Assembly: GCA_963700145.1 (NCBI GenBank)
Contig: OY969474.1
Span: forward strand, 2,848,001-2,912,000
Source: an uncultured Acidobacteriota bacterium
GTDB taxonomy: Bacteria > Acidobacteriota > Thermoanaerobaculia > Multivoradales > UBA5704
Reading direction: 5' to 3'
Length of the DNA stretch: 64,000 nt
Part shown: one piece after another, positions 667 to 50,612 of the stretch
How positions within the stretch are numbered: the stretch's first letter is position 1
Layout: the number at the start of each line of letters is the position of its first letter
Notes under the pieces: model-generated
Databases searched by the model: none
The model's input: only the letters and a program-made list of their open reading frames with translations
What the model was told of the DNA's origin: nothing
Position numbers and translations under genes: made by a program

Positions 667-1029
667 ATGAACTCGCGGCGCCGCTTCCCCACCGTCGCCT
701 TCGCCCTAACGGCGTGGACGCTGGTGGTGGGCCTGAGCGGTCCCCCCTGCCGCGAGCCGGCTTCCTGCCCGATGGACGAGACCGCCGCGGCGCCGACGTG
801 CGACGGCCTCTCGTCGGACTGCTGCCAGCCGGCCGGTGAGAAGGCGCCGCAGTTGCCGGGGCCGGTCGCGCCGGCGGCGGCACCGCTGGCCATCGCGCCG
901 AGCGCGGCCACCGAGCTGGTCGCCCTCCGCGACGCGCCCCGGCTCCTCGCGGCCGTCGAGCACCCGCCGCCCCTCGCGGTCGTCCGGGGCACCGGCCTCC
1001 ACACCCTCCTCGCCGTCTTCCTGATCTAG
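667..1029 (+). CDS. Small Cys-rich exported or leader protein with CC and PPP motifs, upstream of metal-transport genes
   Basis: MNSRRRFPTVAFALTAW hydrophobic N-terminus, then C..C..C..SDCC, HPPP and a C-terminal LLAVFLI. A TACAAT -10 box lies 7 nt before the ATG. Confidence 0.6.
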   Translation: MNSRRRFPTVAFALTAWTLVVGLSGPPCREPASCPMDETAAAPTCDGLSSDCCQPAGEKAPQLPGPVAPAAAPLAIAPSAATELVALRDAPRLLAAVEHPPPLAVVRGTGLHTLLAVFLI

Positions 1030-1096
1030 CGCTCCCCCCGGGAGAGGTGCGCCCCGCCGCCGTCGCGGCGTGGGTTCTCTCGCCAAGGAGGAGCGC

Positions 1097-1534
1097 ATGC
1101 GAGCTGGATCTCAGAGTCTGCCACCGCCCGGAGCGGCCTCGCCGAAGGTGACGGCGTCGTCGCTGCTGTCTCTCTTCACCTCGCTCGGGACGCTGGTCTG
1201 TTGCGCGCTGCCGTCGCTGCTCGTGCTCGCCGGCCTGGGCGCGACGGTGGCCTCGACGCTCTCGGCCCTCCCCTGGCTCGTCGCCCTGTCGCGGCACAAG
1301 GCGTCGACCTTCGCCGTCGCCGGCGTCCTCATCGCCGGCAACCTCGGCTACGTCTACTGGCTCGCGCCCCGATTGCGCGCCCGGGCCCTCGGCTGCCCAA
1401 TCGACGACCCGGCCGCCTGCCAGGTGGCGAGCCGCTTCAGCCGCCGCGTGCTCTGGCTCTCGGCCGCGCTCTACGGGATCGGCCTCTTTGCGGCGTACCT
1501 GCTCGGGCCCCTGCTCGCGAGGTTCGCGTCGTGA
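1097..1534 (+). CDS. MerT/MerF-like inner-membrane heavy-metal transporter
   Basis: TLVCCALP Cys pair in TM1, about 3-4 TM segments, second Cys pair (CPIDDPAAC). RBS AGGAGGAG. Confidence 0.8.
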   Translation: MRAGSQSLPPPGAASPKVTASSLLSLFTSLGTLVCCALPSLLVLAGLGATVASTLSALPWLVALSRHKASTFAVAGVLIAGNLGYVYWLAPRLRARALGCPIDDPAACQVASRFSRRVLWLSAALYGIGLFAAYLLGPLLARFAS

Positions 1535-2400
1535 GCGCGCGAGTGCGCACGACGCTCGCCGCGGCGCTCGGTCTCGCGCTCGCCGCCTCCCCGCTCGCCG
1601 CCGCCGGACACGGCCCGGTGTACGGGCTCGCCACGCCGACGCTCGGGCAGGGGCTGTGGAGCCTGGACGTCGCCGCCATGGGGCGCTCGGGGGGCGCGGG
1701 CGAGATGGCGATGGTGCGGCCGATGCTCGGCTACGGCTTGACCGAGGACCTCCAGGTCTCCGTCTCGCTGCCGCTGTCGCTCGACGACGACCCGGGGGTG
1801 CCGCCGGCGCGGATGATGGCGATGATGCCGGGGGTCCGCGACGCCGAGCTCCTCCTCGGCTGGCGCTTCCACCGCCGGGCGCTCGGCGTCGGCGCGCGCT
1901 TCGAGTCGACCGCCTACCTCGGCCTCGAGGTCCCGACCGACGACGTCCGCGCCGGCGTGCGCACCGCGCCGGGGATCCTCGGCGGCCTTGCCACCGGCTA
2001 CGCCTCGCGCAGCCACTACGCCTGGGGCGGCGCCCAGGTCCAGCGCGCGGCGAGCGCGCGCGGCGGCGACCGCACCGGCGACATGGCGATCTGGAGCCTG
2101 GTCTACGGCTACCGGCCGCAGCGCTTCCGCGAGGAGCTCCCACACGCCGACTGGCGCTGGTTCGTCGAGCTGGTGGGCGAATACCGCGGGCGCGACGAGA
2201 TCGCCGGCCGCGCGCTGGCCGACACCGGCGGCCACGAGGTCTTCCTCGGCCCGACGGTGCTCGGGCTCTTCGGGCCCTGGGGCGTCTCCGGCGGCCCGCT
2301 CTTCCCCGTCCACAGCGACCTCCACGGCGACCAGCCGGAGGAGGACGTCCGCTTCGTCGTCAACTTCAGCTACTGGTTCGTACCGAGGAGCACGCCATGA
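1531..2400 (+). CDS. Putative outer-membrane beta-barrel transporter
   Basis: Signal peptide, alternating beta-strand pattern, Met-rich loop (RMMAMM), near-terminal VNFSYWF. GTGA overlap with the upstream gene. Confidence 0.65.
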   Translation: MSARVRTTLAAALGLALAASPLAAAGHGPVYGLATPTLGQGLWSLDVAAMGRSGGAGEMAMVRPMLGYGLTEDLQVSVSLPLSLDDDPGVPPARMMAMMPGVRDAELLLGWRFHRRALGVGARFESTAYLGLEVPTDDVRAGVRTAPGILGGLATGYASRSHYAWGGAQVQRAASARGGDRTGDMAIWSLVYGYRPQRFREELPHADWRWFVELVGEYRGRDEIAGRALADTGGHEVFLGPTVLGLFGPWGVSGGPLFPVHSDLHGDQPEEDVRFVVNFSYWFVPRSTP

Positions 2401-2909
2401 AACGACTCGTTCTGCTCTCGCTCCTGCTCACCTTGCTCGCCCCCGCCGCCGCGGCGCGCGCCGAGCTGCTGCGCATGCAGCAGGTCCTCTTCGGCATGGA
2501 CTGAGCGGTCTGCGCCCACGCCGTGCGCGTGGCGATGCAGAAGATCAAAGGCGTGGAGAAAGTCGAGGTCTCGCTCAACCGCGGCGTCGTCGACCTCACC
2601 TTCCGCCCCGGCAACACCGCGACGGTCGAAGCGGTGCGGCAGGTGGCGATCGACGGCGGCTTCGCGCCCAAGGACGCCGAGGTGCGGATCGCCGGCACGA
2701 TCGTCCACCGCGGCCAGCCCGGGCTCGCGGTCAAGGGCCTCGACGTCGTCTACCTGCTCGTCGACCACCCGAGCGCCAAGGGCCTCGCCAAGCGCCTGCA
2801 CGGCGAGCACGCCGGGAAGGACGTGGTGCTGCGCGGCGTGGTTCCGGAAACCCGGAAGGCAGGGGAGCCGCGCGTGCTGCAGGTCCAGGAACTGGTGCGG
2901 CGCGATTAG
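2397..2909 (+). CDS. Secreted heavy-metal-associated (HMA/MerP-like) protein, probable selenoprotein with Sec at codon 36
   Basis: ATG 2397 has RBS GAGGAG and an ATGA overlap. A signal peptide is followed by FGMD-TGA(2502-2504)-AVCAHAV...IKGVEKVEVSL, in frame with ORF 2523..2909. This is GMxCxxC with UGA at the first Cys. Confidence 0.85.
2509..2541 (+). promoter_or_regulatory. Candidate bacterial SECIS element
   Basis: Lower stem TCTGC/GCAGA, upper stem CCACGC/GCGTGG. Loop CGTGC begins 17 nt after the TGA and has G at position 2 followed by U. Confidence 0.7.
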
Positions 2910-3112
2910 CGGAAGACCACCTGCCGGAGGCTCTTGTCCTTGTCCTCGAGCAGGATCTTGTTGCCCTTCTCGACCTCGTCGTGGAGGAACTTCTCGGTGG
3001 CGATCGCCTGGCGGACGACTTCGGCCATCGTCACGCCGCGTTTGGCGGCGATCTGCTTGAGGGCCTCGACGGCGGGTTCGGGGAGGTTGAGCGAGGTCTT
3101 GACGTAGCTCAT
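2906..3112 (-). CDS. Ribbon-helix-helix (CopG-like) protein
   Basis: KTSLNLPEPAVEALKQIAAKRGVTMAEVVRQAI fits the RHH pattern. TACAGT lies 7 nt upstream of the ATG. Confidence 0.75.
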   Translation of the reverse strand: MSYVKTSLNLPEPAVEALKQIAAKRGVTMAEVVRQAIATEKFLHDEVEKGNKILLEDKDKSLRQVVFR

Positions 3113-3210
3113 GGGCGGTACTGTAGGCACCTAATAGCCGCCCGTCAATGTGGGGATCCGCGTTGACTCCTCCTATGCATGGGACTACACTCCGGACTCG
3201 TAGGACCAGA

Positions 3211-5250: not shown

Positions 5251-7371
5251 ATGACGCGAGCCCCCCAGGACGACGTGGTGCGCAAGCTGCGCGAGCTGGC
5301 GCACAACCTCTGGTGGACCTGGCAACCCGACATCCGCGCCCTCTTCCGCGAGCTCGAGCCCGAGCTCTGGCGCATCGGCCACCACAACCCGGTGGCCATC
5401 CTCTCCCGGCTCGAGCCCGACGACATCGAGCGGCGGGTGCACGACCTCGAGATGCTCACCCGCGTCAACCAGGCGCACCGCCGCCTCGGCGACTACCTGG
5501 CGGGGGACGCCTGGGGCCTCATCCACGCCGGGCCGCTGCGGGCGCGGCCGGTGGCCTACTTCTCGGCCGAGTTCGGCATCCACCAGTCGCTGCCGATCTA
5601 CTCGGGCGGCCTCGGCGTGCTGGCCGGCGACCACCTGAAGAGCATGAGCGACCTCGGGATCGGCGTCGTGGGGGTGGGGATCCTCTACCACGAGGGGTAC
5701 GTGCACCAGCACCTCGACGCCGCCGGCTGGCAGCAAGACAGCTACGAGCCGATCGCCGCACACGAGATGCCGCTCGATGCGGTGGCCGACGAAGCCGGCG
5801 CGCCGGTGCGGGTGACGGTCGGGCTGCCGGGGAGGGACGTGGCGCTGCGCGTCTGGCGGGTCTGGGTGGGGCGGAGCCAGCTCCTCCTTCTCGACGCGCG
5901 CGACGACGCCAACGCGCCGGCCGACCAGGAGCTCACCGCGCGGCTCTACGGCGGCGACCAGGAGACCCGCATCCAGCAGGAGATGCTCCTGGGCGTCGGC
6001 GGCTACCGCGCGCTGCGCGCGGTGGGGCATACGCCGTCGGTGCTGCACCTGAACGAAGGGCACTCGGCCTTCGCCCTCCTCGAGCGGGCGCGCGAGATCG
6101 TCGAGCTGCAGGGCCTTTCGGCCGCCGACGCGCTGCGCGAGGTGGCGGCGGCGAGCGTCTTCACCACGCACACGCCGGTCGAGGCCGGGCACGACCGCTT
6201 CCTCTCCGAGCTGGCGGGCCGCCACCTGGAGGGGCTGGCGCGCGGCCTGGGGCTCGACTTGGAGGCGCTCCTCGCCCTCGGCCGCGAGCGCCCGGCCGAC
6301 CCCGCCTCGCCCTTCTGCCCCACCGTCCTGGCGCTCAACCTGTCGCGCAAGGCCAACGGCGTCTCGGCCATCCACGGCCGGGTGGCGCGGCGCATGTGGC
6401 GGCACCTCTGGCCGGAGCGCAGCGAGGAGGAGGTGCCGATCGGCCACGTCACCAACGGCATTCACGTCAAGACCTGGCTCGCCGCCGACATGCAGCAGCT
6501 CTACGAGCACTACCTGTCGCCGGCCTGGGCCGACTCGCTCACCCGCCCCGACCTCTGGCGGGAGATCGAGAAGGTGCCGGACGCCGAGCTGTGGGAGGTC
6601 CACCAGGTGCTCAAGGCGCGCCTCTTCGCCTTCGTCGAGCGGCGGCGCGCCGAGCGCTGGGAGCGGCTGGGGCTGCCGGCGGGCCGGCCGCTCGACCAGG
6701 ACGCCCTGACCCTGGGCTTCGCCCGCCGCTTCGCCACCTACAAGCGGGCCGACATCCTCTTCCGCGACCTGGAGCGTCTGGCGCGGCTGGTCGGCGACCC
6801 CGAGCGACCGGTGCAGATCATCTTCGCCGGCAAGGCCCACCCCGCCGACGGCGCCGGCAAGGAGCTGGCGCAGCGCGTCTCGCAGCTCGGCCAGGACCCG
6901 CGCTTCGCCGGGCGCATCGTCTTCGTCGAGAACTACACGATGCACGTCGGCCGGCAGCTCGTGCAGGGCGTGGACGCCTGGCTCAACACCCCGCGCCGGC
7001 CGCAGGAGGCGTGCGGCACGAGCGGCCAGAAGGTGATCTTGAACGGCGGGCTCAACGTCTCGATCCTCGACGGCTGGTGGGCCGAGGCCTTCGAAGGCGG
7101 CAACGGCTTCGCCATCGGCGGCGGCGAGGTGCACGCCGACCCGGCGGTCCAGGACCGGAACGACGCCGAGGCGCTCCTCGCGGTCCTGGAGAAGGAGGTC
7201 GTGCCGCTCTACTACGCGCGCGACGAGGAAGGCATCCCCCGCGGCTGGATCGCCCGCGTCAAGCGGGCCATCCAGACCCTCGCCTGGCGCTACAACGCCG
7301 ACCGCATGGTCAAGGACTACGTCGGGCAGGCCTACCTGCCCGCCGCCGGGGGGAGCACCTGCCGGATGTAG
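5251..7371 (+). CDS. glgP: Alpha-glucan (glycogen) phosphorylase
   Basis: AYFSAEFG, YSGGLGVLAGDHLKS, HLNEGH, ARRFATYKR and the PLP motif EACGTSGQK. Confidence 0.95.
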   Translation: MTRAPQDDVVRKLRELAHNLWWTWQPDIRALFRELEPELWRIGHHNPVAILSRLEPDDIERRVHDLEMLTRVNQAHRRLGDYLAGDAWGLIHAGPLRARPVAYFSAEFGIHQSLPIYSGGLGVLAGDHLKSMSDLGIGVVGVGILYHEGYVHQHLDAAGWQQDSYEPIAAHEMPLDAVADEAGAPVRVTVGLPGRDVALRVWRVWVGRSQLLLLDARDDANAPADQELTARLYGGDQETRIQQEMLLGVGGYRALRAVGHTPSVLHLNEGHSAFALLERAREIVELQGLSAADALREVAAASVFTTHTPVEAGHDRFLSELAGRHLEGLARGLGLDLEALLALGRERPADPASPFCPTVLALNLSRKANGVSAIHGRVARRMWRHLWPERSEEEVPIGHVTNGIHVKTWLAADMQQLYEHYLSPAWADSLTRPDLWREIEKVPDAELWEVHQVLKARLFAFVERRRAERWERLGLPAGRPLDQDALTLGFARRFATYKRADILFRDLERLARLVGDPERPVQIIFAGKAHPADGAGKELAQRVSQLGQDPRFAGRIVFVENYTMHVGRQLVQGVDAWLNTPRRPQEACGTSGQKVILNGGLNVSILDGWWAEAFEGGNGFAIGGGEVHADPAVQDRNDAEALLAVLEKEVVPLYYARDEEGIPRGWIARVKRAIQTLAWRYNADRMVKDYVGQAYLPAAGGSTCRM

Positions 7372-7374
7372 CGG

Positions 7375-8139
7375 TCAGCTCGGGCGCGCGAAGAGCGCCG
7401 GCTCGAGCGGCGGGTTGACCTCCGCTTTCGTGATCGTCGCGGTCTGGAGCACCTGGCCGGTCGCCAGGTCGATCTGGATCGAGCGGAACGGCTTGAGCGT
7501 GCCGCCGAGCGGCCGGTAGTCGCTCCAGACGGTCTCCAGCCGCTTGACAGTCGGGTCGAGGTCGGGGTGGAGCGCCCGCTCGTCCTGCGCGCGGGTGATG
7601 AGGTGGGTCGCCGGATCCAGGGTGTACCGCATCTCCCAGCCGTCGCTCAGCACCAGGCGGAGCGCGTGGCCGCCGGCCAGCTCGACCCGGTGGCCGCGCG
7701 CGGCCATCTCGTGCAGGCCGAGGATGTTGGTGGGGTACTGCGTGCCGTGCCAGAGAGCTGCACTCCCTTCCGGAGTGGCGTCGCGCGCCGGCTCGCCGTC
7801 GCCGCCGAGCTGCCAGCCGCTCCGGCCGTCGAAGGCCTCGGTGAAGACCCGCTCCTCGCCGGAGTACACGTCGATCCGCATCCGGCCCAGGCGGTCCACA
7901 ACATAGGTGGCGCGGACGGTGAACGCCGGCTCGACGATGTCGAGCTCGTAGCGCAGGCTGTCGATCCCCTCGATGGCCGCGGCGCCGCCCAGCGCCCGCG
8001 TGTGCCGCGCGACGACCTCGGCGAGCGACGGCTCAGGGACGCGGCGCGCGCTCGCGGGGCCGGCAGCGGCACAGTCAAGGGCGAGCGGAAGGAGAAACAG
8101 AGGCAGAAACCGGACAAGGGCACAACGCGACGTGCGCAT
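7375..8139 (-). CDS. Exported hypothetical protein (lipoprotein-sorting-like fold)
   Basis: Signal peptide, ARHTRALGGAAAI start, C-terminal SDYRPLGG..PF..EVNPPLEPALFARP. Confidence 0.6.
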   Translation of the reverse strand: MRTSRCALVRFLPLFLLPLALDCAAAGPASARRVPEPSLAEVVARHTRALGGAAAIEGIDSLRYELDIVEPAFTVRATYVVDRLGRMRIDVYSGEERVFTEAFDGRSGWQLGGDGEPARDATPEGSAALWHGTQYPTNILGLHEMAARGHRVELAGGHALRLVLSDGWEMRYTLDPATHLITRAQDERALHPDLDPTVKRLETVWSDYRPLGGTLKPFRSIQIDLATGQVLQTATITKAEVNPPLEPALFARPS

Positions 8140-8174
8140 GCCGCATTAGACGTGCGGATGCAGCGCCAGTTGGG

Positions 8175-8582
8175 CTAGCAGCGCGCCCGCACGGCGCTGG
8201 CGAAGGCGAGGAGGTCGTCGAGGCGGTTGATGACGACCGACTCGACGATCCCGAGGTTCAGCGAGTCGTAGTCGTGGACCAGGACGTTGCGGAAGCTGGC
8301 CATCTCCTGAAGCGCCGCGGCCAGCTCGGGGGCGAGCCAGCCGGCGCGGCGCAGGAGATCGAAGAGGTCGCGGTTCGCGCCGGGCTCGCCCAGGCGCTCG
8401 TCGGAGACGACGTGCGAGGCGACGTCGAGCGCCGCTTCGATCGCCAGATGCAGGGTGCGAGTCACGAACCGCTCTTCGCGGACGTCCTCGTGCAGGCGGT
8501 CCAGCCGCGACATGGTGCGCAGCTCGCGCACGTACGTCTCGACCGCAGCCAGCTTCTTGAAGACCAGGTCGCGGTCGGTCAT
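8175..8582 (-). CDS. HEPN (DUF86/HepT-like) RNase toxin
   Basis: Rx4H motif FRNVLVHDY. Coupled to the upstream nucleotidyltransferase. Confidence 0.9.
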   Translation of the reverse strand: MTDRDLVFKKLAAVETYVRELRTMSRLDRLHEDVREERFVTRTLHLAIEAALDVASHVVSDERLGEPGANRDLFDLLRRAGWLAPELAAALQEMASFRNVLVHDYDSLNLGIVESVVINRLDDLLAFASAVRARC

Positions 8583-22108: not shown

Positions 22109-23567
22109 GGGGTTGTCCCTCCCGCTGTTGAAAGAGCAATGAGGTGAAGGCGGCTCCTCGGCCCACCTGATCGAGAATCGGGTTGGTCGAATAACCGGCC
22201 CCGCCAGGGGGCCAAGGAGCCGTGATGAAGACGAGAGCAGAAAGGCGGGTGGTGTGGCAAGGGGGCCGTGCGGCGCGCATCAGCCACGGGCTACAAGCGC
22301 TGCTGCGGCCGATGGTCGAGGGCATCGAGGCCAGCCGCCAGGGGCTGCTGGAGCTGTTTCACGCCGCGGGCGTCGAGGCCCTGGGGCGGCAGCTCGCGGA
22401 CGAGGTCGAGGCCGTCGTCGGTCCGAAGCGTCGGCGCAATCCGACCCGCGAGGCGTACCGCTGGGGCTCGACGGCGAGCGAGTTCGTGCTGGGTGGCCGC
22501 CAGGTGGCGCTGCCGCGACCGCGCGTCCGGCGACGCGACGGTGGCGAGATGAGCTTGCCTTCGGTGCGCGCCTTTCAGGACGAAGATCCCTTCACGGAGC
22601 GGGTGATCGAGCAGGCGCTGGTCGGCGTCTCGCAGCGCCGCTACGGTCGGAGCTTGGAGCCGCTCGCAGAGTCGGTGCCGGAGCGCGCGACGAGCAAGAG
22701 TGCGGTCCAGCGCCGGCTGGTGGCGGGGACGCGTCGTCTGCTGGGCGCGTGGCTGCGCCGAGACCTGTCGGACTTCCAGCCCCTGATCCTGATGATCGAC
22801 GGGCTGGAGGTGGCCGGCCACACCCTGGTGGTGGCACTCGGCATCGCGCGCGACGGGACCAAGCGGGTGCTCGGCCTGCGTGAAGGCGCGACGGAGAACG
22901 CGGCGCTCTGTACCGGCCTGCTCCAGGAGCTGTTGGAGCGAGGCCTCGCGATGCCGCCGCGCTTCTTGGCGGTGCTCGACGGCGGCAAGGGGCTGCGCAA
23001 GGCCGTGCGCGCCGTCTTCGGGGACGCAACCCACGTCCAGCGCTGCCAGCTCCACAAGCGCCGCAACGTCCGCGACCACCTGCCCAAGCAGCTCCAAGCC
23101 CGGGTCGACCGCCTGATGGTCGAGGCCTACCAGAGCGCTCGCTTCGACCTCGCCAAGCGTCGCCTCGAGCAGCTTGCCCGCTGGCTCGAGCACGCAGGCC
23201 ACGCGGGCGCCGCGGGCAGCCTGCGCGAGGGCCTCGACGAGACCCTCACCGCCTTGCGGCTGAAGCTGCCCGACGCTCTGCGCCGGTTGCTCGCCTCGAC
23301 CAACGCGATCGAGAACACGATCGGCTCGATCCGTACGACGACGCGCAACGTCAAGCGCTGGCGCGGCGGCGACATGGTGCTGCGCTGGGTCGCCCTGGCG
23401 CTGTGTGACGCGGAGGCTGGCTTCCGGCGTGTCAAGGGACATCGGCACCTCGGGGCTCTCGAGCTCGCGCTCGCGGCGATCGAGGAACCGACGAACACCA
23501 AGGCCGTGGCATGATCAACCGAGCCGCTTTCCCTCTTTCGGCTTTCAACAGGGAACGGGGCATCCCC
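22109..23567 (+). mobile_element. IS256-family insertion sequence, 1459 bp
   Basis: 26-bp imperfect terminal inverted repeats (GGGGTTGTCCCTCCCGCTGTTGAAAG, 20/26 match). 8-bp TSD AGTGAAAT at 22101-22108 and 23568-23575. Confidence 0.93.
22222..23514 (+). CDS. IS256-family (Mutator-type) DDE transposase
   Basis: LMIDG, VLDGGKGL, QRCQLHK.RN, STNAIE. Confidence 0.95.
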   Translation: MMKTRAERRVVWQGGRAARISHGLQALLRPMVEGIEASRQGLLELFHAAGVEALGRQLADEVEAVVGPKRRRNPTREAYRWGSTASEFVLGGRQVALPRPRVRRRDGGEMSLPSVRAFQDEDPFTERVIEQALVGVSQRRYGRSLEPLAESVPERATSKSAVQRRLVAGTRRLLGAWLRRDLSDFQPLILMIDGLEVAGHTLVVALGIARDGTKRVLGLREGATENAALCTGLLQELLERGLAMPPRFLAVLDGGKGLRKAVRAVFGDATHVQRCQLHKRRNVRDHLPKQLQARVDRLMVEAYQSARFDLAKRRLEQLARWLEHAGHAGAAGSLREGLDETLTALRLKLPDALRRLLASTNAIENTIGSIRTTTRNVKRWRGGDMVLRWVALALCDAEAGFRRVKGHRHLGALELALAAIEEPTNTKAVA

Positions 23568-29553: not shown

Positions 29554-29793
29554 ATGGCAGCCAGCACGCTCACGAGCAAGGGCCAGCTCACCATGCCCAA
29601 AGCGATCCGGGAGCGCCTGGGTCTGCGCGAGGGAGACAGAGTGGAGTTCCGGGTGACGGAGAACGGCCAGGTGCTGGTCGAGGCCGTCACCGTCGACCTG
29701 CGTGAGTTGCGGGGAGCCCTCAAGACCCAGGGCCGGCCGGTGTCGGTCGAGGAGATGGAGGAGGCGGTGCGGAGCGCAGGGACGCGCTTGTGA
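29554..29793 (+). CDS. AbrB/MazE-type antitoxin (VapB)
   Basis: STLTSKGQLTMPKAIRERLGLREGDRVEF. Confidence 0.9.
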   Translation: MAASTLTSKGQLTMPKAIRERLGLREGDRVEFRVTENGQVLVEAVTVDLRELRGALKTQGRPVSVEEMEEAVRSAGTRL

Positions 29794-30185
29794 TCGGCCT
29801 CGACACCAACGTCCTCGTTCGCTACCTCGTCGAGGATGACCCCGATCAGGCGCCGCGCGCCGCGGCGCTCATTGAGCAAGCCTCCGAGGCGGGCGAGCGC
29901 CTGTTCGTGCCGCAGATCGTACTGTGCGAGATCGTGTGGGTCCTGGAGAGCGCCTTCCGCTTCCCGCCAGAAAAAATCGTCTCGGTCCTCGCCGCCCTCC
30001 TGCGCTCCCGCCAGCTCGTCATCGAAGACGTCGGCACGTCGCGGCTTGCCCTCGAGCGCTACGCGGCGCGCGGCGGTGATTTCGCGGACTACCTCATCAT
30101 CGAGCGCTGCCGCGCCGCAGGCTGCGAACGCGTGGCCTCCTTCGATGGAGGACTGGCCTCGGAGGAGGGCGTCTTCGCGCCTTGA
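29790..30185 (+). CDS. vapC: PIN-domain VapC toxin
   Basis: IGLDTNVLVR, E..WVL, DFAD, SFD. GTGA overlap with the antitoxin. Confidence 0.9.
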   Translation: MIGLDTNVLVRYLVEDDPDQAPRAAALIEQASEAGERLFVPQIVLCEIVWVLESAFRFPPEKIVSVLAALLRSRQLVIEDVGTSRLALERYAARGGDFADYLIIERCRAAGCERVASFDGGLASEEGVFAP

Positions 30186-37269: not shown

Positions 37270-37800
37270 TTAGTCGGTGATGGGCCGCGCCTTGAGCCGG
37301 GGCTTGCCGTCCTCGACCGCGATCCGGAACTGCACCGCGGCGCAGCCGGTCTTGGCGCGGATCGCCGCCGCCTGCCGGGCGAGGTAGGCCCCGAAGCCGG
37401 CGAGGTCGAAGACCGCCTTGCCGCCGCCGCCGAGGCCGGCGTAGAGGGCGGCGACGGCCGCGGGCTCGGGCCGGTCGTCCATCACGATGCCGCGCTCGGC
37501 GTCGTAGCGGGGAGGCGCGGCCGGGGCCGGCGCGTGGCGCGGCCCGCGGCGCCCCTCCTCGCGGTCGCGGAGGCGGCGGTTGAACTGCTCGTTGTAGGTG
37601 TTGAAGCGAGACTCCAGCTCGGCCAGGCGGAAGTTGTCGGCGGCGGCGCGGAAGGTGGTGTTCCTGAGGCTGCGGAGCTGGGCCTGGATGCGCTCGCGCA
37701 GCGCCTCGGGGGGGAGCGGCACGCCGCCGTTGAAGAAACGCTCGAACTCGACCCGCAGCTGGCGGATCTCCTCGCCCAGGAGGTCGAGGATCCGCGTCGG
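37270..37800 (-). CDS. MXAN_5187 C-terminal-like protein, start undefined
   Basis: LRVEFERFFNG..PP...F...E.RFNTY.E.F.R.LR..EEG and VQFRIAVEDGKPRLKARP. No canonical start codon before selA. Confidence 0.6.
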   Translation of the reverse strand, partial: PTRILDLLGEEIRQLRVEFERFFNGGVPLPPEALRERIQAQLRSLRNTTFRAAADNFRLAELESRFNTYNEQFNRRLRDREEGRRGPRHAPAPAAPPRYDAERGIVMDDRPEPAAVAALYAGLGGGGKAVFDLAGFGAYLARQAAAIRAKTGCAAVQFRIAVEDGKPRLKARPITD

Positions 37801-37891
37801 CGGCGGCGCGGGGGCCGGCGCCTGCCGGGCGGCGGCGGCGCGGCGCGCGGCGGCCGTCGCCGGGGCCTGCGGGCTAGAATCCGGTCTGGAG

Positions 37892-39250
37892 ATGGGTGCC
37901 CTCGATTCGCGTCGCCTGATTCCGTCGGTCGATCGGCTCCTGGGCGACCCGAGGATCGCGAGCCTCTTCCCATTATACGGACGGGCCCAGGTGAGCGCCC
38001 AAGCGCGGCGGGAGGTCGAGGCGGCGCGGGCGCGGCTGGCCGCCGAGCCGCCGCCGTCGCGCGAGGAGGCGCTGGCCGCCGTCGCCGCGCTCCCCGAGCG
38101 GCTCGCCGCCAATCTGGAGGAGCGGTTGGGCGGCGGCCTGCGACGGGCGCTCAACGCGACCGGCATCTTCCTCCACACCAACCTCGGGCGCGCGCCGCTG
38201 CCGCAGAGCGTGGCGCGGGCGCTGCCGCCGCTCCTCGACGCCTACTGCGACCTCGAATTCGAGCTCGACGACGGGCGGCGCGGCGACCGCAACCGCCGCC
38301 TCGAGCGCCTGCTGACCGCCGCGACCGGCGCCGAGGCGGCGCTCGTGGTCAACAACAACGCCGCCGCGCTGGTCTTGGCGCTGGCGGTGCTGGCGCGGGA
38401 GCGGGAGGTCGTCGTCTCGCGCGGCGAGCTGGTCGAGATCGGCGGCTCCTTCCGCATCCCGGAGATCCTCGCCGCCGCCGGCGCCCGCCTGGTCGAGGTG
38501 GGGTCGACCAACCGTACCCGCCTCGCCGACTACGAGCGGGCGATCGGGCCCGAGACGGCGCTGCTGCTCAAGGTCTTCCCCAGCAACTTCCGGGTGGTCG
38601 GCTTCACCGCGTCGGTCGCGCCGGCCGAGCTGGTCGAGCTGGGGCGGCGGCGCGGCCTGCCGCTTTTGGTCGACGAGGGGAGCGGGCTCCTCCGCCCGCA
38701 CCCGGCGCCGGCGCTCGCGGGGCATCCGAGCCTCTCGGAGCTCGTGGCCGCCGGCTGCGACCTCGCCTGCGGCAGCGGCGACAAGCTGCTCGGCGGGCCG
38801 CAAGCCGGGCTCCTGGTCGGGCGAGCGGAGGTCGTCGTGCGCTGCCGCAAGCACCCGCTCTACCGCGCCCTGCGCCCCGACCGCGCCGGCGTGGCGGCGC
38901 TCGAAGGGGTGCTCAAGCTCCACCTCGCCGGCGCGCCGCTGCCGCTCGACCGCCTCTGGCCGGACCCTGCCGCGCACCGGCGGCGGCTGGAGAGCGCGGC
39001 GGCGGCGGTGGGAGCGGAGATCGTGCCGGCCGAGGCGTTCCTGGGCGGCGGCTCGGCGCCCGAGGCGCCGCTGCAGGGGGAGGCGCTGGCCCTGCCGGGG
39101 GACGACGCCCTCCTCCGCCGGCTGCGCACGGGCGACCCCCCGGTCGTCGGCTACCTGCGCGGCGGGCGGCTCCTCCTCGACCTCCGCACCGTCGATCCCG
39201 AGGACGACCCGCTCCTCGTCGCGGCGGTGCGCGCCGCGCTCGCCGGGTGA
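37892..39250 (+). CDS. selA: L-seryl-tRNA(Sec) selenium transferase
   Basis: NATGIFLHTNLGRAPL, VVNNNAAA, SRGELVEIGGSFRIPE, SGDKLLGGPQAG. Confidence 0.95.
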   Translation: MGALDSRRLIPSVDRLLGDPRIASLFPLYGRAQVSAQARREVEAARARLAAEPPPSREEALAAVAALPERLAANLEERLGGGLRRALNATGIFLHTNLGRAPLPQSVARALPPLLDAYCDLEFELDDGRRGDRNRRLERLLTAATGAEAALVVNNNAAALVLALAVLAREREVVVSRGELVEIGGSFRIPEILAAAGARLVEVGSTNRTRLADYERAIGPETALLLKVFPSNFRVVGFTASVAPAELVELGRRRGLPLLVDEGSGLLRPHPAPALAGHPSLSELVAAGCDLACGSGDKLLGGPQAGLLVGRAEVVVRCRKHPLYRALRPDRAGVAALEGVLKLHLAGAPLPLDRLWPDPAAHRRRLESAAAAVGAEIVPAEAFLGGGSAPEAPLQGEALALPGDDALLRRLRTGDPPVVGYLRGGRLLLDLRTVDPEDDPLLVAAVRAALAG

Positions 39251-39275: not shown

Positions 39276-40577
<1,302 letters not shown>

Positions 40578-41332: not shown

Positions 41333-44300
41333 TCAGAACTCCTTCCAGTTCTTCTCGATGATGCAGATCGGCACCGGCGCGATGTGGATGATGCCGGTGT
41401 CGGAGGCCAGCGTCTTGACGTCGTGCCGGTAGTTGGCGAACTTGCAGTTCGAGGGGAAGAGCTTCTGCAGCTCCTGCATCACCTTGTTGAGGTGCGCCGC
41501 GAGCTGGCCGGAGGTGGCTTCCTCGCCGGGCGCCGTCGCCGTCTGCCCCTGCTCGATGTAAGGCTCGGTGACGAAGTCCTGGATGACGGTGAAGCGCGTC
41601 GGCAGGAGGTTGGTGTCGTAGAGCAGGCCGTTGCCGTTGGTGGCGTTGACCGCGAAGATGCGGCTGCTGCCGGTGCGGCGGCAGGTGGGCTCCTCCTGCC
41701 CCTGCCCGGGGGTGACCAGCACGTCGGGGTCGAAGACCGTGAAGACCAGGACCCCAGAGAGGGCGAACGGGTTGGTGATCAGCTTCTCGTCGGCGTTCAG
41801 CGGCAGGAGCCACCCCTTGCCGGCAACGCCGGGATCGGTGATGAAGTCGGTGTTGGTGGACGCCGACGCCGGGTCGATCTGCGTCAGGTCGGCCTCGGTG
41901 TAGAAGGTCGTCTTGTCGTCGACGCGGATGTCGTCGCGCATGACGTAGAAGCGCCCGGTCTGTCCCTCGGCGCTCCACAGGTCGTTGCGCTGGCCGACGC
42001 CGAAGGCCAGGGCGTACTCGTTGCGCCGCGCGATGAAGATAACCGAGGGGCGGTAGAAGATCGCCCGCGGCGGCACGGCCGGGGTGGTGGCGTCCTGCTG
42101 CGCCTTGAAGACCACCCGCGGCGCGAAGCGGAGGTCGGTCGGCAGGATGCGCTGCACTGTCACCGGCCCGAGGCCCGGCGGCAGGCCCTGCGCCACGTCC
42201 AGCACCACCGGCGCCAGCTCGGGCAGCTCGCCGGCCGGCCCGCGCAGGTCGACCCGGTACATCAGCCCCTTGTTGGTGCCGAGGTAGATGCGGTCGAGGT
42301 AGCCGTCCTGGTCGGTGTCCACCGCCGCCGGCTCCGACGGCGCGGCGCCGTCGACGGTCTGCTTGTAGATCGCCTGGCCGGTCTCGATGTCCACCATGTA
42401 GAGCCAGTTGCCGGCGAGGTTGGTGGTGTCGAGCCCGCCACCGAAGACCGCCACGTACTTGTCCACCGGGACGTTAGCCTCGAGGACCCGGATGCGGCCG
42501 ATGTTGGGGATCGACCAGGTCTGGGCGAGGTCGTTCCTGCCGTTGCCGTCCTCGTCGAGCCGGCTGGGCACGCCGGCCAGGGCGTCGTAGACGCTGTCGG
42601 TGAACTCCCAGAGCTGCGCCGGGAACTTGACCGGACCGCAGCTGGAGTCCTCGGCCATGTCGAAGCAAGTTGGCACCCACGGACCCGGATCGCCCGGTAC
42701 GCCCGAAATGTGCGGCAGGTGGTCACCGTGGTCGCGGATGGTGTCGGGTTGAGTGATGTCCAGCGCGTAATAGGCGCTCCCTCCTTCGCGCATGCCGCCG
42801 ATCAGCACCGTCCGCCACTCCGGCCCGTCTTCGCTGTCCGGGTCGTCGGGATTAGGCACACCGACGAACCGCGGGTCGATGCGCACGTCGGCGGCGGCCA
42901 CGGTGCCGTCCACCGACCAAGTGCGGTTGGTGCCGGAGCCGGCGTAGAGGTCTTTGAGCGGGCGCAGCGACGCCCGCGGCACGAAGGCGAAGAGCTCCCG
43001 GCCGGTCCCGTCGTCGAAGGTCTCGTTCTTCTCCGGATCGAGCGGGTCGGTGAAGGCGATCCCGTCGTCGTCCTTGTCGCGGAAGACTCCGGCGTCGAAG
43101 ACATGGAGCTGTCCATCGTTTGCTCCGACGATGAGCATTTTGCGGCGGAAGCGGTGCTTTTGCGCGAACTCGCGGTAGCCGTTGACGTTGTTGGCGAAGA
43201 AGAGCGAGTTGCTCGGGCCGCCGGTGATCACCGGGTTGGAATGGAAGATGTCGCCAAGGACAAAGGGCACGTCATCGGCGAGGTTGGCAGGCGTCCCGGC
43301 GAGATCAGCTGTCTTAAGCGCGAGGGCCTCGCGAATCACCTCCACGGCGATGGCCTGATTTGTGGTGGCATCGCCTGACTGCGGGAGGCCCATGCCGCGA
43401 TAGAGGTCGACACGGTCTGGCAAAGTTGCGGGGGTTTCGAATGCCCTTCGGGCCAAAGGCCACTGGCCGTTCGCAGTCAGACGAGAATAGTAGACCCGTC
43501 GGTCCTCGGGGTTGGGGCCGATCACCACCGGATCGTTCGGGTCCTCCGGCGTCTGCTTGAGCAGCTCCGCACCGGCGTCCCATAGGAAACACTTCCTCTT
43601 GACGCTGTCACTGCAGGCAGGGCTGGTTTTCGGCGTGCCGTCCTGCTCTTCCGGCACCGGTTTTCTGAAGGCATTCATACGCCCCAACCACACCGGCTCC
43701 GGCTCGTCGGGGAAACCTGGACGGACGAGCGGGGCGAGGGGGTTGAAGTTGCTCAGAAAGACTTTCTGCTCCACGTCGGCCTGGACGGTGGGGACGGCCG
43801 CCGAGGCGAACGCCTTGGTGGCCTGCTGGATCTGGCCGATGATCTTGCGCAGGGCGTCGACCAGCTCGCCGTAGGTCTGCGGCGTCAGGCACTCGCCTTT
43901 CCCGGCCTGGGTGAGGCTGTGGTAGGTCGAGTTGGGCGGGCAGGTGCCGCCGAAGTCGATCGCCCAGGTCTTGACCCGCGTCTGCCGCAGGCTGGCGACC
44001 GCCGCGGTGGCGTCGTTGTTGTCGCCGTGCGCCTCGCCGTCGCCGATGACGATCAGGAACGGGCGTCGGCACCCCCACTCGGCGAAGTCCTTGACCACGG
44101 CCACGTCGTCCCAGCCGCTGCCGAAGGGCTGGAAGTCCGACTTGCACTTCTGGTCCTCGCTGCCGATGTACCAGCAGCGGAAATCGACGATCGACTTGTT
44201 GAGCGGGCTGGCGCCGAAGGGGACGAGCGGCCGCCGGTCGGCGTCCTTGAGATGGAAGAAGCCGTCGCTGCGCGGCGCGTTCTCGAAGTAGGCGGCGGCG

Positions 44301-45541
44301 CGGAACTCCATCTCGGAGAGCGGCGCTCCGTCGGACCAGTTCGGGGCCAGGCGGCGGGCGAAGTCCTCGCGGTTGGTGAGGTCCCAGTGCAGCGGGATCA
44401 TGTCGCCGCGGTCGAGGACGATCGCGGGGTCGAGCACGGTGTCCTGCTTGATCTTGTACGGGCTGCCGGCCACCCGCGGGTCCTGGTCGCCGATCTGGTC
44501 GAAGCCCGGGCCGCTGCGGGTCGGCACCGAGTCGTAGTTGCTCTCCCAGCCCTGGCCCGAGAAGGGCTTGTTGCCCGGGCCGCAGGTGCTATTGGCCTGG
44601 ACGTCCTGCCAGGCCCAGCCCATGCCGCGGCTCTGCTCCTCGTTGTTCTCGGGGTTGCCGCCCCCGCCGCCCCCGCCACCGCCACCCCCACCGCCCCCGC
44701 CGCCGCCACCGCCCCCGCCGCCGCCCCCCTGCCCGCAGTCGGCGAACTGGGCGCTGTTGGTCACCAGCTCGTCGGACATCAGGAACTCGGTCGAGTAGTC
44801 GAGGGTCGAGACGACCTCCTCGTGTTCCGTGAGGACCGGGGAAGGCAGGCACACCGTCGCCCTGTCGGTCGCGAAGCGGACCTGCAGGACGCCCGGTCCG
44901 AAGGCCCCGGCCTCGTGGCTGACGGTGAGCTTGTAGGTGTTGGCCCCCTTCTTGAGCCAGAGCGTTGTCGGCGCGTAGGTCAGGATGCCGTCGAGGTCGG
45001 GGTCGGTCGGCGAGAGCTTGGCGAAGCGGTCGACCTTGTCGAGGTCGGCGGCGCTGCTGGCGTTGAGCGGCGCGGCGCAAGTCCCCGCCACGCCCGGCGT
45101 CGCCGTCTCGAAGTGGGTGCCGAAGGTGACGAAGCTGCCGCGGCGCGGGTAGGCGAGGGCGGTGGACTGCGCCGACGCCGACTGCACCCGGTAGAGCCAG
45201 TGCTTGCCGCGCACGCGGAGCTGGTCCTGGTTGTAGGTCGCCAGCCCGAAGTGGATGGTGTCGCCGTTCTCCTGGTAGGTCTCGGTCAGCACCTGGAGCA
45301 ACGCCTGCTTGACCTGCAGGAACTTGGAGGTGACGCCGTCGCCGCTGCCGTGCACCCAGGTGTCGTCGGGCGCCAGGTTCATCGAGGTCGAGGTGTCGAT
45401 GATGAAGTAGACGTAGGGCTTGCCCGACTGGATCTTGAAGAGCAGCGTGTCGTCGCCGGCCGCGTAGCCGGCGAGCAGGGCGGCGGCGAGCACGCCGGCG
45501 ACGGCGGCGCGGAGCGGGAGCTGGGATCGGCGAGTGCGCAT
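41333..45541 (-). CDS. pilY1: Type IV pilus tip adhesin, PilY1-like
   Basis: vWA-like IIDTSTSM, LGDIFHS, VGANDGQLHVF, GRELFAFVP, Ca-binding DTDQDGYLD. Contains a poly-Gly tract. Confidence 0.9.
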   Translation of the reverse strand: MRTRRSQLPLRAAVAGVLAAALLAGYAAGDDTLLFKIQSGKPYVYFIIDTSTSMNLAPDDTWVHGSGDGVTSKFLQVKQALLQVLTETYQENGDTIHFGLATYNQDQLRVRGKHWLYRVQSASAQSTALAYPRRGSFVTFGTHFETATPGVAGTCAAPLNASSAADLDKVDRFAKLSPTDPDLDGILTYAPTTLWLKKGANTYKLTVSHEAGAFGPGVLQVRFATDRATVCLPSPVLTEHEEVVSTLDYSTEFLMSDELVTNSAQFADCGQGGGGGGGGGGGGGGGGGGGGGGGGNPENNEEQSRGMGWAWQDVQANSTCGPGNKPFSGQGWESNYDSVPTRSGPGFDQIGDQDPRVAGSPYKIKQDTVLDPAIVLDRGDMIPLHWDLTNREDFARRLAPNWSDGAPLSEMEFRAAAYFENAPRSDGFFHLKDADRRPLVPFGASPLNKSIVDFRCWYIGSEDQKCKSDFQPFGSGWDDVAVVKDFAEWGCRRPFLIVIGDGEAHGDNNDATAAVASLRQTRVKTWAIDFGGTCPPNSTYHSLTQAGKGECLTPQTYGELVDALRKIIGQIQQATKAFASAAVPTVQADVEQKVFLSNFNPLAPLVRPGFPDEPEPVWLGRMNAFRKPVPEEQDGTPKTSPACSDSVKRKCFLWDAGAELLKQTPEDPNDPVVIGPNPEDRRVYYSRLTANGQWPLARRAFETPATLPDRVDLYRGMGLPQSGDATTNQAIAVEVIREALALKTADLAGTPANLADDVPFVLGDIFHSNPVITGGPSNSLFFANNVNGYREFAQKHRFRRKMLIVGANDGQLHVFDAGVFRDKDDDGIAFTDPLDPEKNETFDDGTGRELFAFVPRASLRPLKDLYAGSGTNRTWSVDGTVAAADVRIDPRFVGVPNPDDPDSEDGPEWRTVLIGGMREGGSAYYALDITQPDTIRDHGDHLPHISGVPGDPGPWVPTCFDMAEDSSCGPVKFPAQLWEFTDSVYDALAGVPSRLDEDGNGRNDLAQTWSIPNIGRIRVLEANVPVDKYVAVFGGGLDTTNLAGNWLYMVDIETGQAIYKQTVDGAAPSEPAAVDTDQDGYLDRIYLGTNKGLMYRVDLRGPAGELPELAPVVLDVAQGLPPGLGPVTVQRILPTDLRFAPRVVFKAQQDATTPAVPPRAIFYRPSVIFIARRNEYALAFGVGQRNDLWSAEGQTGRFYVMRDDIRVDDKTTFYTEADLTQIDPASASTNTDFITDPGVAGKGWLLPLNADEKLITNPFALSGVLVFTVFDPDVLVTPGQGQEEPTCRRTGSSRIFAVNATNGNGLLYDTNLLPTRFTVIQDFVTEPYIEQGQTATAPGEEATSGQLAAHLNKVMQELQKLFPSNCKFANYRHDVKTLASDTGIIHIAPVPICIIEKNWKEF

Positions 45542-45567
45542 TTCGGGACCTCCTCGGGCGGCGGCGA

Positions 45568-46155
45568 TCAGAACCTGATGCGGTCGAGCTCGGCCTGGTT
45601 TTGCACCGCCGAGTAGGCCTCCGGCGAGGCCCGCCAGGGCTGGATCTCGATCATCGCGCTCAGCGTCTTCTGCGCCACCGGCGTCTCGTTGCTGCCGTCC
45701 TGGAGCGTGGCGAAGCGCGCCGCGTCGACGGTCACGGCGTGGATGATCTTGCGGAAGGCGCGCTCGTTGTAGGCGCCGGCGTTGTTGATCTCGCAGAGAT
45801 TGCAGGGGGCGTCGAAGATCGGGTAGAAGGGCGAGACGTCGACGCGGGTGCCGAGCTTCACCTTGCCGGTAAGCAGCCCGCCGCTGTCGGTCATGGTGTA
45901 GACGCGGGCGCGGTGGTCGGCGGTCACGAGCACCCGGGCGGTGGCGATCTCGATGCCCGAGTCGGCGACGTAGAAGACGCGGCTGATCGTCTTCTCGTTG
46001 CTCCCCACCAGCATCTCGGTCTGGGTGATCAGCGCCAGCGCCAGGCCGAAGATGGTGAGGACCACGAGGACCACGAGCACCGCCACGTAGGCGCTCCCCC
46101 GCTCTCCCGTGCGGTCCGTGTGCTGCGAGGCGGCGTGCGTGTCGTTCGGCTTCAT
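45568..46155 (-). CDS. Minor pilin, PilX-like
   Basis: ERGSAYVAVLVVLVVLT (no Glu5), FYVADSGIE. Confidence 0.8.
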   Translation of the reverse strand: MKPNDTHAASQHTDRTGERGSAYVAVLVVLVVLTIFGLALALITQTEMLVGSNEKTISRVFYVADSGIEIATARVLVTADHRARVYTMTDSGGLLTGKVKLGTRVDVSPFYPIFDAPCNLCEINNAGAYNERAFRKIIHAVTVDAARFATLQDGSNETPVAQKTLSAMIEIQPWRASPEAYSAVQNQAELDRIRF

Positions 46156-46169
46156 AGCTGGTCTCCGGG

Positions 46170-47411: not shown

Positions 47412-47905
47412 TTGGCCTTGAGCATCTGGAGCACCAGCTCGTTCCTGCCGCCCAGCGGGTTGCCCGGCGAGCGGTTGCCCGCCACCTCGACGCGGATCTC
47501 CTTCAAGTGCACGTAGCTCGGATCGGTGTCGCCGTCGAGCGGCTCGTCGAGGTCGTTGATGCCGAAGAGGCGCACGCGGGTGCTGCGCCGCCAGATCGCG
47601 TAGTCGCCGCTCGGCGGCGTGGTGGTCCAGGTGTGGGCGGCGAAGTTGTAGCTGTCGCTGACGACGAGCTGGGTCTGGCCATCCGGCACGTCGAGGCGGG
47701 CGCTGTCGAAGGGGAGCTGGAAATACTCCTCGAGGCGCGACTTGCCCATGTTGCTGACGTCGGTCGCCTCGCGGCCGGAGAGGTTGTTGCGGATCGACTC
47801 GACGAAGAGGGGCAAGAGCCCCACCGCGATGATGAGGAAGATCCCCGCCGCGATCAGCACCTCGATGACCGAGAAGCCGGCGTTGCTCCGGTTGCCGTTG
47901 CCCAT
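47408..47905 (-). CDS. Minor pilin, PilV-like
   Basis: AGFSVIEVLIA prepilin motif. Confidence 0.8.
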   Translation of the reverse strand: MGNGNRSNAGFSVIEVLIAAGIFLIIAVGLLPLFVESIRNNLSGREATDVSNMGKSRLEEYFQLPFDSARLDVPDGQTQLVVSDSYNFAAHTWTTTPPSGDYAIWRRSTRVRLFGINDLDEPLDGDTDPSYVHLKEIRVEVAGNRSPGNPLGGRNELVLQMLKAK

Positions 47906-47968
47906 GCTGGGTCTCCCGCGCCGGCGGCGCCGGCGCACACTGCTGGTGGACTTCCGGCAGGGGCAGGG

Positions 47969-47984
47969 AGCAAGGGGGGTGCCA
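47969..47984 (-). promoter_or_regulatory. Sigma54 promoter of the minor pilin operon
   Basis: TGGCAC-CCCCC-TTGCT. Confidence 0.8.
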
Positions 47985-50600: not shown

Positions 50601-50612
50601 CGGCTCCGCCGG

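Follow-up and report, generated by a model that had tools for sequence, protein, structure and literature searches.

Selenocysteine (Sec, U) occurs in several described families of bacterial metal-handling proteins. The small CopZ-like family UxxU_metal_bind (NF041115) is listed as a selenoprotein in a table of a 2026 review (PMC13188914), and selenoproteins of the MerT family have been described (10.1101/2022.07.06.499078). A UxxC cation-transporting P-type ATPase, a predicted selenoprotein, and a 'putative mercuric transport protein' also appear among the selenoproteins in the tables of PMC9312934 and PMC13188914. The passages of these two tables that were searched contain no secreted selenoprotein family that combines a heavy-metal-associated (HMA) domain with a barrel. 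A literature search for a periplasmic MerP-like selenocysteine protein returned no such report; papers beyond that search may describe the family. Here we analyse a gene, designated ORF4, near the start of a 64,000-nt stretch of DNA (hereafter, the window) from contig OY969474.1 of an uncultured Acidobacteriota bacterium. It is the last of a block of four open reading frames (ORF1 to ORF4) and carries an in-frame TGA. Its product is most likely a secreted two-domain metallochaperone-like protein, with a signal peptide, an HMA domain and a barrel resembling the oligonucleotide/oligosaccharide-binding (OB) fold. We consider ORF4 to be, most probably, a single Sec-decoding HMA gene that the databases record as a short fragment.

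An in-frame TGA in the metal-binding loop of ORF4

The features of ORF4 and its immediate signals are as follows.
2385..2390, forward strand: Shine-Dalgarno-like GAGGAG, 6 nt before ATG 2397, read from the sequence
2397..2909, forward strand: ORF4, full predicted selenoprotein gene, from ATG 2397 to TAG 2909, 170 codons, with U at codon 36
2397..2462, forward strand: predicted signal peptide of the Sec (secretory) type, residues 1-22 (MKRLVLLSLLLTLLAPAAAARA, then E), read by eye
2466..2681, forward strand: HMA domain, from Pfam PF00403, secondary structure and Foldseek
2502..2504, forward strand: in-frame TGA, proposed Sec codon U36, kept in a second assembly and aligned with Cys (six relatives) or 'W' (two relatives)
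2509..2541, forward strand: hairpin resembling a bacterial selenocysteine insertion sequence (bSECIS), apical loop CGUGC (2522-2526), from folding and the bSECIS constraints, with one synonymous difference from the second assembly
2682..2906, forward strand: C-terminal OB-like five-stranded barrel (beta1-3, helix, beta4-5), residues ~96-170, from AlphaFold2 and Foldseek

The ORF4 frame (2397-2909) contains a single internal stop, TGA 2502-2504 at codon 36. In its local context, FGMD-U-AVC, the TGA coincides with the first Cys of the GMxCxxC loop of the HMA domain. The ATG of ORF4 (2397-2399) overlaps the stop codon of ORF3 (TGA, 2398-2400) as ATGA, and ORF2 and ORF3 are joined in the same way by GTGA (1531-1534). 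Both junctions are thus 4-nt overlaps, and 67 nt separate the end of ORF1 from ORF2. A preliminary description of this DNA had proposed a hidden selenoprotein of the UxxC type, with an HMA fold followed by a beta-rich domain, encoded at the end of a four-gene block and translationally coupled to the gene before it. It had placed the TGA at the first Cys of GMxCxxC in a frame continuous to 2909, and had stated that standard gene calling splits the gene. These points are borne out by the overlap, the ribosome-binding-site-like GAGGAG and the frame itself, and by the domain and structure predictions given below. They are also borne out by the public entry for the window's own DNA, which is a 124-aa fragment starting at ATG 2535.

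A composition screen of the 64 kb on both strands singled out TGA 2502 as the only one with 35 stop-free, coding-like codons on each side. The G+C content of the two flanks is 0.91 and 0.94 at third codon positions and 0.37 and 0.37 at second positions. TGA is also the commonest ordinary stop in the window (21 of 40 ORFs), which indicates that the codon is not reassigned in this organism. A ribbon-helix-helix (CopG/antitoxin-like) gene at 2906-3130 on the reverse strand converges on ORF4 and overlaps its stop by approximately 4 nt, leaving no room for a terminator between the two; this gene is absent from the matching place in the second assembly.

The N-terminus of ORF4, read by eye, consists of MKR, a hydrophobic core and ARA followed by E. 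The predicted local distance difference test score (pLDDT) is low over residues 1-20 (63-66), in keeping with a signal peptide, and all eight full-length relatives (8/8) have a similar hydrophobic stretch at the N-terminus. Secretion of the product is strongly supported. Pfam PF00403 matches residues 32-73, across the TGA, with 30.9 bits against a gathering cut-off of 24.8. An AlphaFold2 model based on 99 aligned sequences (pLDDT 91.3, predicted template modelling score 0.83) has an intact HMA fold and a second, beta-rich domain. The predicted secondary structure comprises strands at 24-32, 53-59 and 64-69, helices at 37-48 and 77-86, and a strand from residue 90 onward. In this model, U36 is predicted to lie in the loop between beta1 (24-32) and alpha1 (37-48). 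Foldseek matched the first domain to HMA7 (3dxs), MerP (1osd) and CopZ (6ff2) with target TM-scores of 0.81-0.90. On NCBIfam, ORF4 gave only sub-cut-off matches (UxxU selenoprotein, MerP, CopZ and MerT/CopZ fusion), and no curated model claims the protein.

The second domain was also predicted with confidence when residues 92-170 were modelled alone (pLDDT 91.0). Its Foldseek matches were weak and confined to OB folds (E 0.02-0.15, query TM-score approximately 0.41-0.64), and they include anticodon-binding domains of aminoacyl-tRNA synthetases, single-stranded DNA-binding protein, YgiW and SilF. These matches are generic as well as weak, and no specific family can be named for the domain. Its alignment shows no evident conserved site of Cys, His or Met; the conserved columns are mostly Gly, Leu and Pro, and we therefore see no second metal site.

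If Sec decoding is assumed, the metal loop reads GMD-U-x-x-C, with a selenolate and a thiolate beside an invariant Asp. The residue preceding U, C or W (window codon 2499-2501) is Asp in nine of nine full-length family members. Asp in this position is what we take to be a signature of Zn/Cd/Pb-type HMA domains, such as those of ZntA and ZiaA, and not of the Cu/Hg type, an assumption for which a literature search that included PMC11970713 gave no confirmation.

Relatives of ORF4 are numerous. A word-indexed search found 18, of 125-139 aa, all of which (18/18) begin downstream of the U position. When 1.84 billion cluster representatives were searched with a profile, 2148 matched at E<=1e-3; of these, 638 remained at <=1e-10 and 28 at <=1e-30. 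The 638 are family clusters defined at 50% identity. In an alignment of 166 database relatives, 158 lack the upstream sequence and begin at residues 37-48 of the window protein, that is, 1-12 residues after the TGA position. Their start positions are sharply grouped (24 at residue 37, 34 at 38, 77 at 43, 5 at 45, 17 at 47 and 1 at 48). All 158 begin with M or V, and their identity to the window protein extends down to approximately 30%. Such a pattern is the one expected from a stop fixed at one codon, after which the gene caller restarts at the first available start codon. The remaining eight relatives extend upstream into the signal peptide; six read GMDCAxC (P0060, P0075, P0096, P0113, P0125 and P0136, with Cys aligned to U36) and two read GMDWAVC. 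The two W entries originate from short JGI contigs (909 and 1022 nt) and would represent TGA read as Trp by the gene caller. Alternation of Cys and TGA at codon 36, which the preliminary description had proposed as a check, is seen at the protein level among the 166 relatives, in which Cys, 'W' and truncated forms alternate exactly there. In approximately 95% of the best-scoring clusters, the public protein begins directly after codon 36; judged from these sequences, Sec would be the rule and Cys the exception in the family. The relatives carry names such as 'copper chaperone CopZ', 'heavy-metal-associated domain-containing protein', 'cation transporter' and 'hypothetical protein', and the named source organisms are Thermoanaerobaculia, Gemmatimonadales and Candidatus Udaeobacter.

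A search of genome contigs, using a 5-sequence alignment, identified one close locus, L001, in a metagenome-assembled genome of Thermoanaerobaculia. L001 shares the TGA and all four genes with the window, with 95% identity for the block and 84-96% across the genes, and its public ORF4 entry is likewise a fragment. The TGA is not peculiar to one assembly. Upstream of it, the two ORF4 genes differ by 6 synonymous and 3 non-synonymous codon changes and by no indels; downstream of it, the numbers are 14 and 8. The synonymous excess on both sides indicates that both halves evolve as coding sequence. From ORF2 through ORF4 there are no indels at all, compared with 15 indel columns in ORF1. Outside the block, identity drops to 43% before ORF1 and to 29% beyond ORF4. 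The block could be a mobile cassette, as identity falls sharply at both ends; however, synteny is partly kept. A gene with a CarboxypepD_reg domain lies downstream of the block in both loci; it follows ORF4 almost directly in the window, and in L001 a 903-aa ORF without a Pfam hit (5552-8263, forward strand) stands in between.

The bSECIS-like hairpin and the selenocysteine machinery

The hairpin at 2509-2541 starts 5 nt after the UGA, has a 6-bp upper stem and a UGA-to-loop distance of 17 nt, and folds alone with -17.9 kcal/mol. We coded the bSECIS constraints as a loop of 3-9 nt, an upper stem of 4-16 bp, a G in the first two loop positions and a distance of 16-37 nt from the UGA, together with a minimum free energy of <= -7.5 kcal/mol. 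The four constraints of the bacterial model were taken from the legend of Fig. 2 in PMC13188914, and the hairpin falls within all four as coded.

Codon-level covariation supports the hairpin better than its geometry does, as far as protein sequences allow it to be traced. The covariation was inferred from amino acids, which fix the second codon position except in the case of Ser. In the upper stem, the codons of residues 41 and 45 pair through their second positions, and so do those of residues 42 and 44. Both pairs can form in 55 of the 58 truncated sequences spanning this region and in both W forms (2/2), but in only two of the six Cys forms. Among the distinct octads, 20 of 22 are able to pair; the shuffle mean is 14.0, and none of 5000 shuffles reached 20. 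Five of six shifted registers gave only 0-3 pairing octads. Ala at residue 42 (C at position 2) is accompanied by Arg or Ser at residue 44 in 47 of 47 sequences, and Val or Ile at residue 42 (U at position 2) by Tyr, Asp, Asn or His in 11 of 11 (window codons 41-45, 2517-2531). These last four residues are chemically dissimilar and are all encoded by NAY codons. In such a codon, the A would be the partner of the U at residue 42, and the Y that of the first base of the Val or Ile codon. Likewise, H41R accompanied by V45A would turn an A-U pair into a G-C pair. The GU of the loop comes from Val43 (GUN). Wherever this residue is covered, every truncated form (58/58) and both W forms keep it; two of the six Cys forms have Ile or Met instead. 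The amino-acid pattern at residues 42 and 44 thus looks like one dictated by the RNA stem. Conservation of the hairpin among relatives, which the preliminary description had named as a check, is found in this protein-inferred form: the stem pairs are kept in truncated forms and not in most Cys forms.

One component of the Sec machinery lies in the window, as had been noted before.
37598..39250, forward strand: selA (selenocysteine synthase), Pfam SelA E 9.5e-106 and Se-cys_synth_N E 1.5e-8

The Pfam domains of selA begin at residue 105, and the ORF extends approximately 90-100 codons further at the 5' end than these domains require; the real start is probably later than 37598. The next gene, at 39276-40577 (forward strand), encodes a sigma-54 response regulator, and selB is not found there. 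No SelB or SelD Pfam hits were obtained among the window ORFs scanned, the window contains no tRNA, and Rfam gave no hits in it at gathering thresholds.

Neighbouring genes, a proposed metal relay and alternative readings

The three genes preceding ORF4 are as follows.
667..1029, forward strand: ORF1, conserved 120-aa Cys-rich protein, with 20 database proteins including its own entry
1097..1534, forward strand: ORF2, predicted 145-aa distant MerT-like inner-membrane permease, from its Cys pattern, sub-cut-off model matches and the Atlas
1531..2400, forward strand: ORF3, putative 289-aa outer-membrane beta-barrel, from Atlas language-model features

ORF1 has an N-terminal hydrophobic segment, the pattern C-x5-CPMD...C-DG-x-SSDCCQ, a Pro/Ala linker and an invariant C-terminal ...VFLI. 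In an alignment of 14 sequences, residues C45, D51, C52, C53, Q54 and E58 do not vary. The 19 database relatives besides its own entry include several from named Thermoanaerobaculia, and its identity to the L001 protein is 84%. No Pfam or NCBIfam hits were obtained for ORF1. A twin-arginine signal was considered and rejected because the SRRRF sequence is not conserved in homologs. Tandem repeats of 21 nt, in arrays of 2 to 4.5 copies with 65-95% matches, lie just upstream of ORF1 (361-533), and the first 660 nt of the window contain no ORF with coding-like composition.

In MerT proteins, a vicinal Cys pair lies in the first membrane helix, and a loop carries another pair of Cys residues. ORF2 shows both features, with the vicinal C35-C36 (LVCCALPSL) in its first hydrophobic helix and C100/C108 in an Arg-rich loop (topology by eye), and these four Cys residues are invariant in 25 of 25 aligned homologs. 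The family has 2407 matches at E<=1e-3. Weak, sub-cut-off matches among the 25 homologs are to MerTP_fusion (23), MerT_CopZ_Se (15), PRK13751 MerT (8) and Pfam MerT (3), the best to Pfam MerT (PF02411) having an E value of 0.0038. ORF2 itself has no Pfam hit even at E<=10, and the curated MerT cut-offs (PF02411 and PRK13751) were not reached. The nearest Atlas clusters are auto-named MerT (scores 0.95-0.97), and many homologs are named 'mercuric ion transport protein' by JGI. A tblastn search against plasmids gave no matches for ORF4 and ORF3. For ORF2, it found a hypothetical gene of 37.6% identity on four Variovorax megaplasmids (e.g. L002, NZ_LR594667.1 124084-124760). This gene overlaps a preceding small hypothetical gene and has no HMA gene annotated nearby, and its neighbours were uninformative.

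ORF3 has a signal-peptide-like N-terminus, the Met clusters GEMAMVRPM and ARMMAMMPG, and a C-terminal ...FSYWF. Its Atlas matches (0.96-0.99) are to clusters auto-named outer-membrane beta-barrel porin and to one cluster in which PF13557 (Phenol_MetA_deg) is found on 77% of the members. ORF3 has no direct Pfam hit (PF13557 included) or PDB sequence hit, and PDB sequence searches of ORF2 and ORF3 returned nothing meaningful. Compared with L001, it shows 26 synonymous and 16 non-synonymous codon changes. In the preliminary description, these genes were a Cys-rich leader, a MerT-like permease and a Met-rich outer-membrane barrel. ORF1 is indeed real, conserved and Cys-rich, but the MerT likeness of ORF2 stays below every curated cut-off and the barrel of ORF3 is seen by language-model features only. 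We keep the assignments of ORF2 (MerT relative) and ORF3 (outer-membrane barrel) as leads.

Scattered elsewhere through the window are genes of toxin-antitoxin and mobile types: a HepT-like RNase (8175-8582, reverse strand), a Mutator-family transposase (22222-23514, forward strand) and a PIN-domain protein (29790-30185, forward strand). A type IV pilus block at 41333-53239 (reverse strand) encodes PilY1-like, PilW and PilX-like proteins, pilins with the N-methyl motif and a prepilin peptidase, interleaved with a PAS histidine kinase and M20 peptidases.

For the function of the block, we propose the following relay. The UGA at codon 36 would very likely be decoded as Sec through the hairpin and the Sec machinery, of which selA is visible. 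The mature ORF4 protein would reside in the periplasm, where its selenolate-thiolate site may bind a thiophilic metal ion. This ion could be passed by ligand exchange between the Met-rich ORF3 barrel and the vicinal Cys pair of ORF2 via ORF4, with the Cys-rich ORF1 as a further thiol partner. We lean slightly towards this relay. As to the metal, the Met clusters would suggest Cu(I)/Ag(I); the resemblance of ORF2 to MerT would suggest Hg(II), and the invariant Asp presumably a metal of the Zn/Cd/Pb type.

The direction of the relay is the point on which the strongest rival differs. Inward transport, by analogy with the passage from MerP to MerT, is tentatively favoured. In the outward variant, the selenoprotein would be the same, and its selenolate site, being tighter than the thiol pairs of ORF2, would pull toxic metal outward. 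The metal would move from the cytoplasmic face via the MerT-like permease to the periplasm, and there either leave through the ORF3 barrel or be held. As the preliminary description had stated for merA and merR, no merA, merR or copA-type pump was found among the window ORFs scanned (Pfam) or in the L001 flanks. Nor is there a cytoplasmic reductase in the 64-kb window or in the 3.2 kb visible upstream of the block in L001. Toxic-metal import would thus have no visible endpoint, which keeps export or sequestration alive, and outer-membrane components are typical of export routes. On the other hand, the characterised MerT proteins import their metal (MerT/MerP import is also stated in 10.1101/2022.07.06.499078), the block contains no energy-coupling component, and the window covers only 666 nt upstream of the block. 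We regard an outward pathway or a sink as unlikely, though by no means negligible.

Several observations weigh against our interpretation as a whole. TGA at codon 36 was observed directly in only two closely related assemblies, and the equation of W with TGA is our own inference. None of selB, selC and selD was found within the 64-kb window. The hairpin geometry by itself is compatible with a SECIS but is weak evidence: in this window of 70% G+C, 258 of 1088 TGA triplets (24%) pass the same bSECIS criteria, and the hairpin region (-24.4 kcal/mol) has a z score of -1.09, with 26 of 200 shuffles folding at least as well. The earlier statement that the hairpin fits the bacterial SECIS consensus consequently stands as to the constraints, but the fit alone does not exceed chance. 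The covariation comes from related sequences with only six Cys forms and with Ser ambiguous at position 2; under one shifted register (40-44/41-43), 15 of 22 octads are able to pair as well, and the Cys form P0136 has the same octad as Sec forms. The four-gene block is demonstrated only in L001; elsewhere, relatives of ORF1, ORF2 and ORF4 occur on contigs of matching length (379110, 595207, 3693, 2224 and 2738 nt), which is only a hint. Finally, the assignment of ORF3 as a barrel comes from a single feature-based search.

Some of these observations bear on how the UGA is read. It might be read through but not as Sec, with Trp or Cys inserted by near-cognate suppression, or Cys inserted via the Sec machinery when selenium is scarce. 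The two database entries with W at codon 36 and the selB, selC and selD genes not seen in the window agree with such a reading. However, Trp is unable to replace a metal-binding Cys, and the W entries, on their short contigs, are readily ascribed to an inferred gene-caller table in which TGA is Trp. The presence of selA and the retention of the hairpin specifically in forms without Cys also speak for Sec, and we judge non-Sec read-through to be very unlikely.

Slightly less probable still is that TGA 2502 is a true stop, with a product of 124-128 aa from ATG 2535 or GTG 2523, and that the 35 upstream codons are a tiny ORF or untranslated. This is how the window's own entry and every named NCBI/JGI relative are annotated, and TGA is the stop most often used in the window. 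With a true stop, however, an HMA fold that is otherwise intact would be left without beta1, the metal loop and the signal peptide, whereas six relatives are continuous, with Cys at codon 36 and a signal peptide. The 105 nt upstream of the TGA look coding and evolve like coding sequence, and no Shine-Dalgarno-like sequence directly precedes 2523 or 2535. A pseudogene or an assembly error, in which an HMA gene was inactivated by a recent nonsense mutation that a single in-frame stop would resemble, can be practically dismissed, because an independent assembly has the same TGA with changes on both sides that resemble purifying selection, 158 of 166 relatives are cut at the same codon down to approximately 30% identity, and the stop falls exactly on the metal-binding Cys.

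Returning to the reading of codon 36 as Sec and of the block as a relay, the complete picture would be a selenoprotein family that is widespread among soil bacteria (Acidobacteriota, Gemmatimonadota and Verrucomicrobiota) but has so far gone unlisted. In this family, Sec would have displaced the first metal-binding Cys of a periplasmic HMA-plus-barrel chaperone almost entirely, and nearly all database entries would be headless. A SECIS hairpin within alpha1 would dictate the residue pairs at 42 and 44, and ORF1-ORF4 would form an envelope-spanning selenol/thiol relay for soft metals without the mer reductase. Because all of these parts have to hold jointly, we offer the whole with some reserve, as plausible but slightly on the doubtful side. 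If it is true, re-annotation is needed for hundreds of clusters that now bear names such as 'CopZ', 'cation transporter' or 'hypothetical protein' but would be selenoproteins in truncated form, and the curated selenoprotein model sets would gain a family. A periplasmic metal site with selenolate as the rule would be a test case for the use of selenium over sulfur in metal binding, as opposed to redox chemistry. With its amino-acid covariation imposed by the SECIS, the family would show clearly how an RNA signal can mould a helix of the encoded protein, and soil selenium availability would be linked to trace-metal handling by abundant, poorly studied phyla.

Comparison with known metal-binding proteins and selenoproteins

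ORF4 resembles MerP (TIGR02052) in being a secreted HMA domain with a GMxCxxC-type loop, encoded beside the gene for a MerT-type permease. The MerP structure 1osd was matched with a target TM-score of 0.83, and the NCBIfam MerP model with an E value of 2.1e-10. However, the score of 40.9 bits is below the MerP cut-off (92.55), the first ligand is predicted to be Sec instead of Cys, and ORF4 has an extra OB-like domain of approximately 75 aa. In addition, the residue before the first Cys of MerP is Thr, in contrast to the Asp of ORF4. At the level of the operon, the block shows the order permease, barrel and binding protein, and differs from a mer operon in having no merR or merA in view.

The best NCBIfam match of ORF4 (E 1e-10) is to NF041115, which is also of the HMA type with Sec in the metal loop. 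The match reaches 41.6 bits against a cut-off of 95. The NF041115 model has 74 positions and a UxxU loop, whereas ORF4 has UxxC, a signal peptide and a second domain. The MerT/CopZ fusion selenoprotein NF045683 likewise pairs a MerT-like permease with a Sec-containing HMA module, and ORF2 (E 0.029) and ORF4 (E 6.3e-6) match its corresponding halves with 13.8 and 25.8 bits, respectively, compared with a cut-off of 375 bits. In NF045683 the two parts are fused, whereas ORF2 and ORF4 are separate genes with the barrel gene between them, and ORF2 has no in-frame TGA. The predicted UxxC P-type ATPase shares the UxxC in an HMA-type loop; its UxxC domain is a cytoplasmic regulatory domain of the pump, whereas ORF4 is predicted to be a free, secreted protein.

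The Cu(I)/Ag(I) chaperones CusF and SilF can be compared only with the C-terminal domain of ORF4, as both are small periplasmic beta-barrels of the OB type. SilF (8bhu) ranked 15th among the matches to this domain (E 0.065, query TM-score 0.43), behind better generic OB folds, and the alignment of the domain shows no evident conserved site of Met, His or Trp. The caution on novelty in the preliminary description was justified, because Sec-containing HMA domains and MerT selenoproteins had already been described. Sec in an HMA loop is therefore known in itself, and what appears to be new in ORF4 is its architecture, its location, its operon and the high inferred share of Sec in its family.

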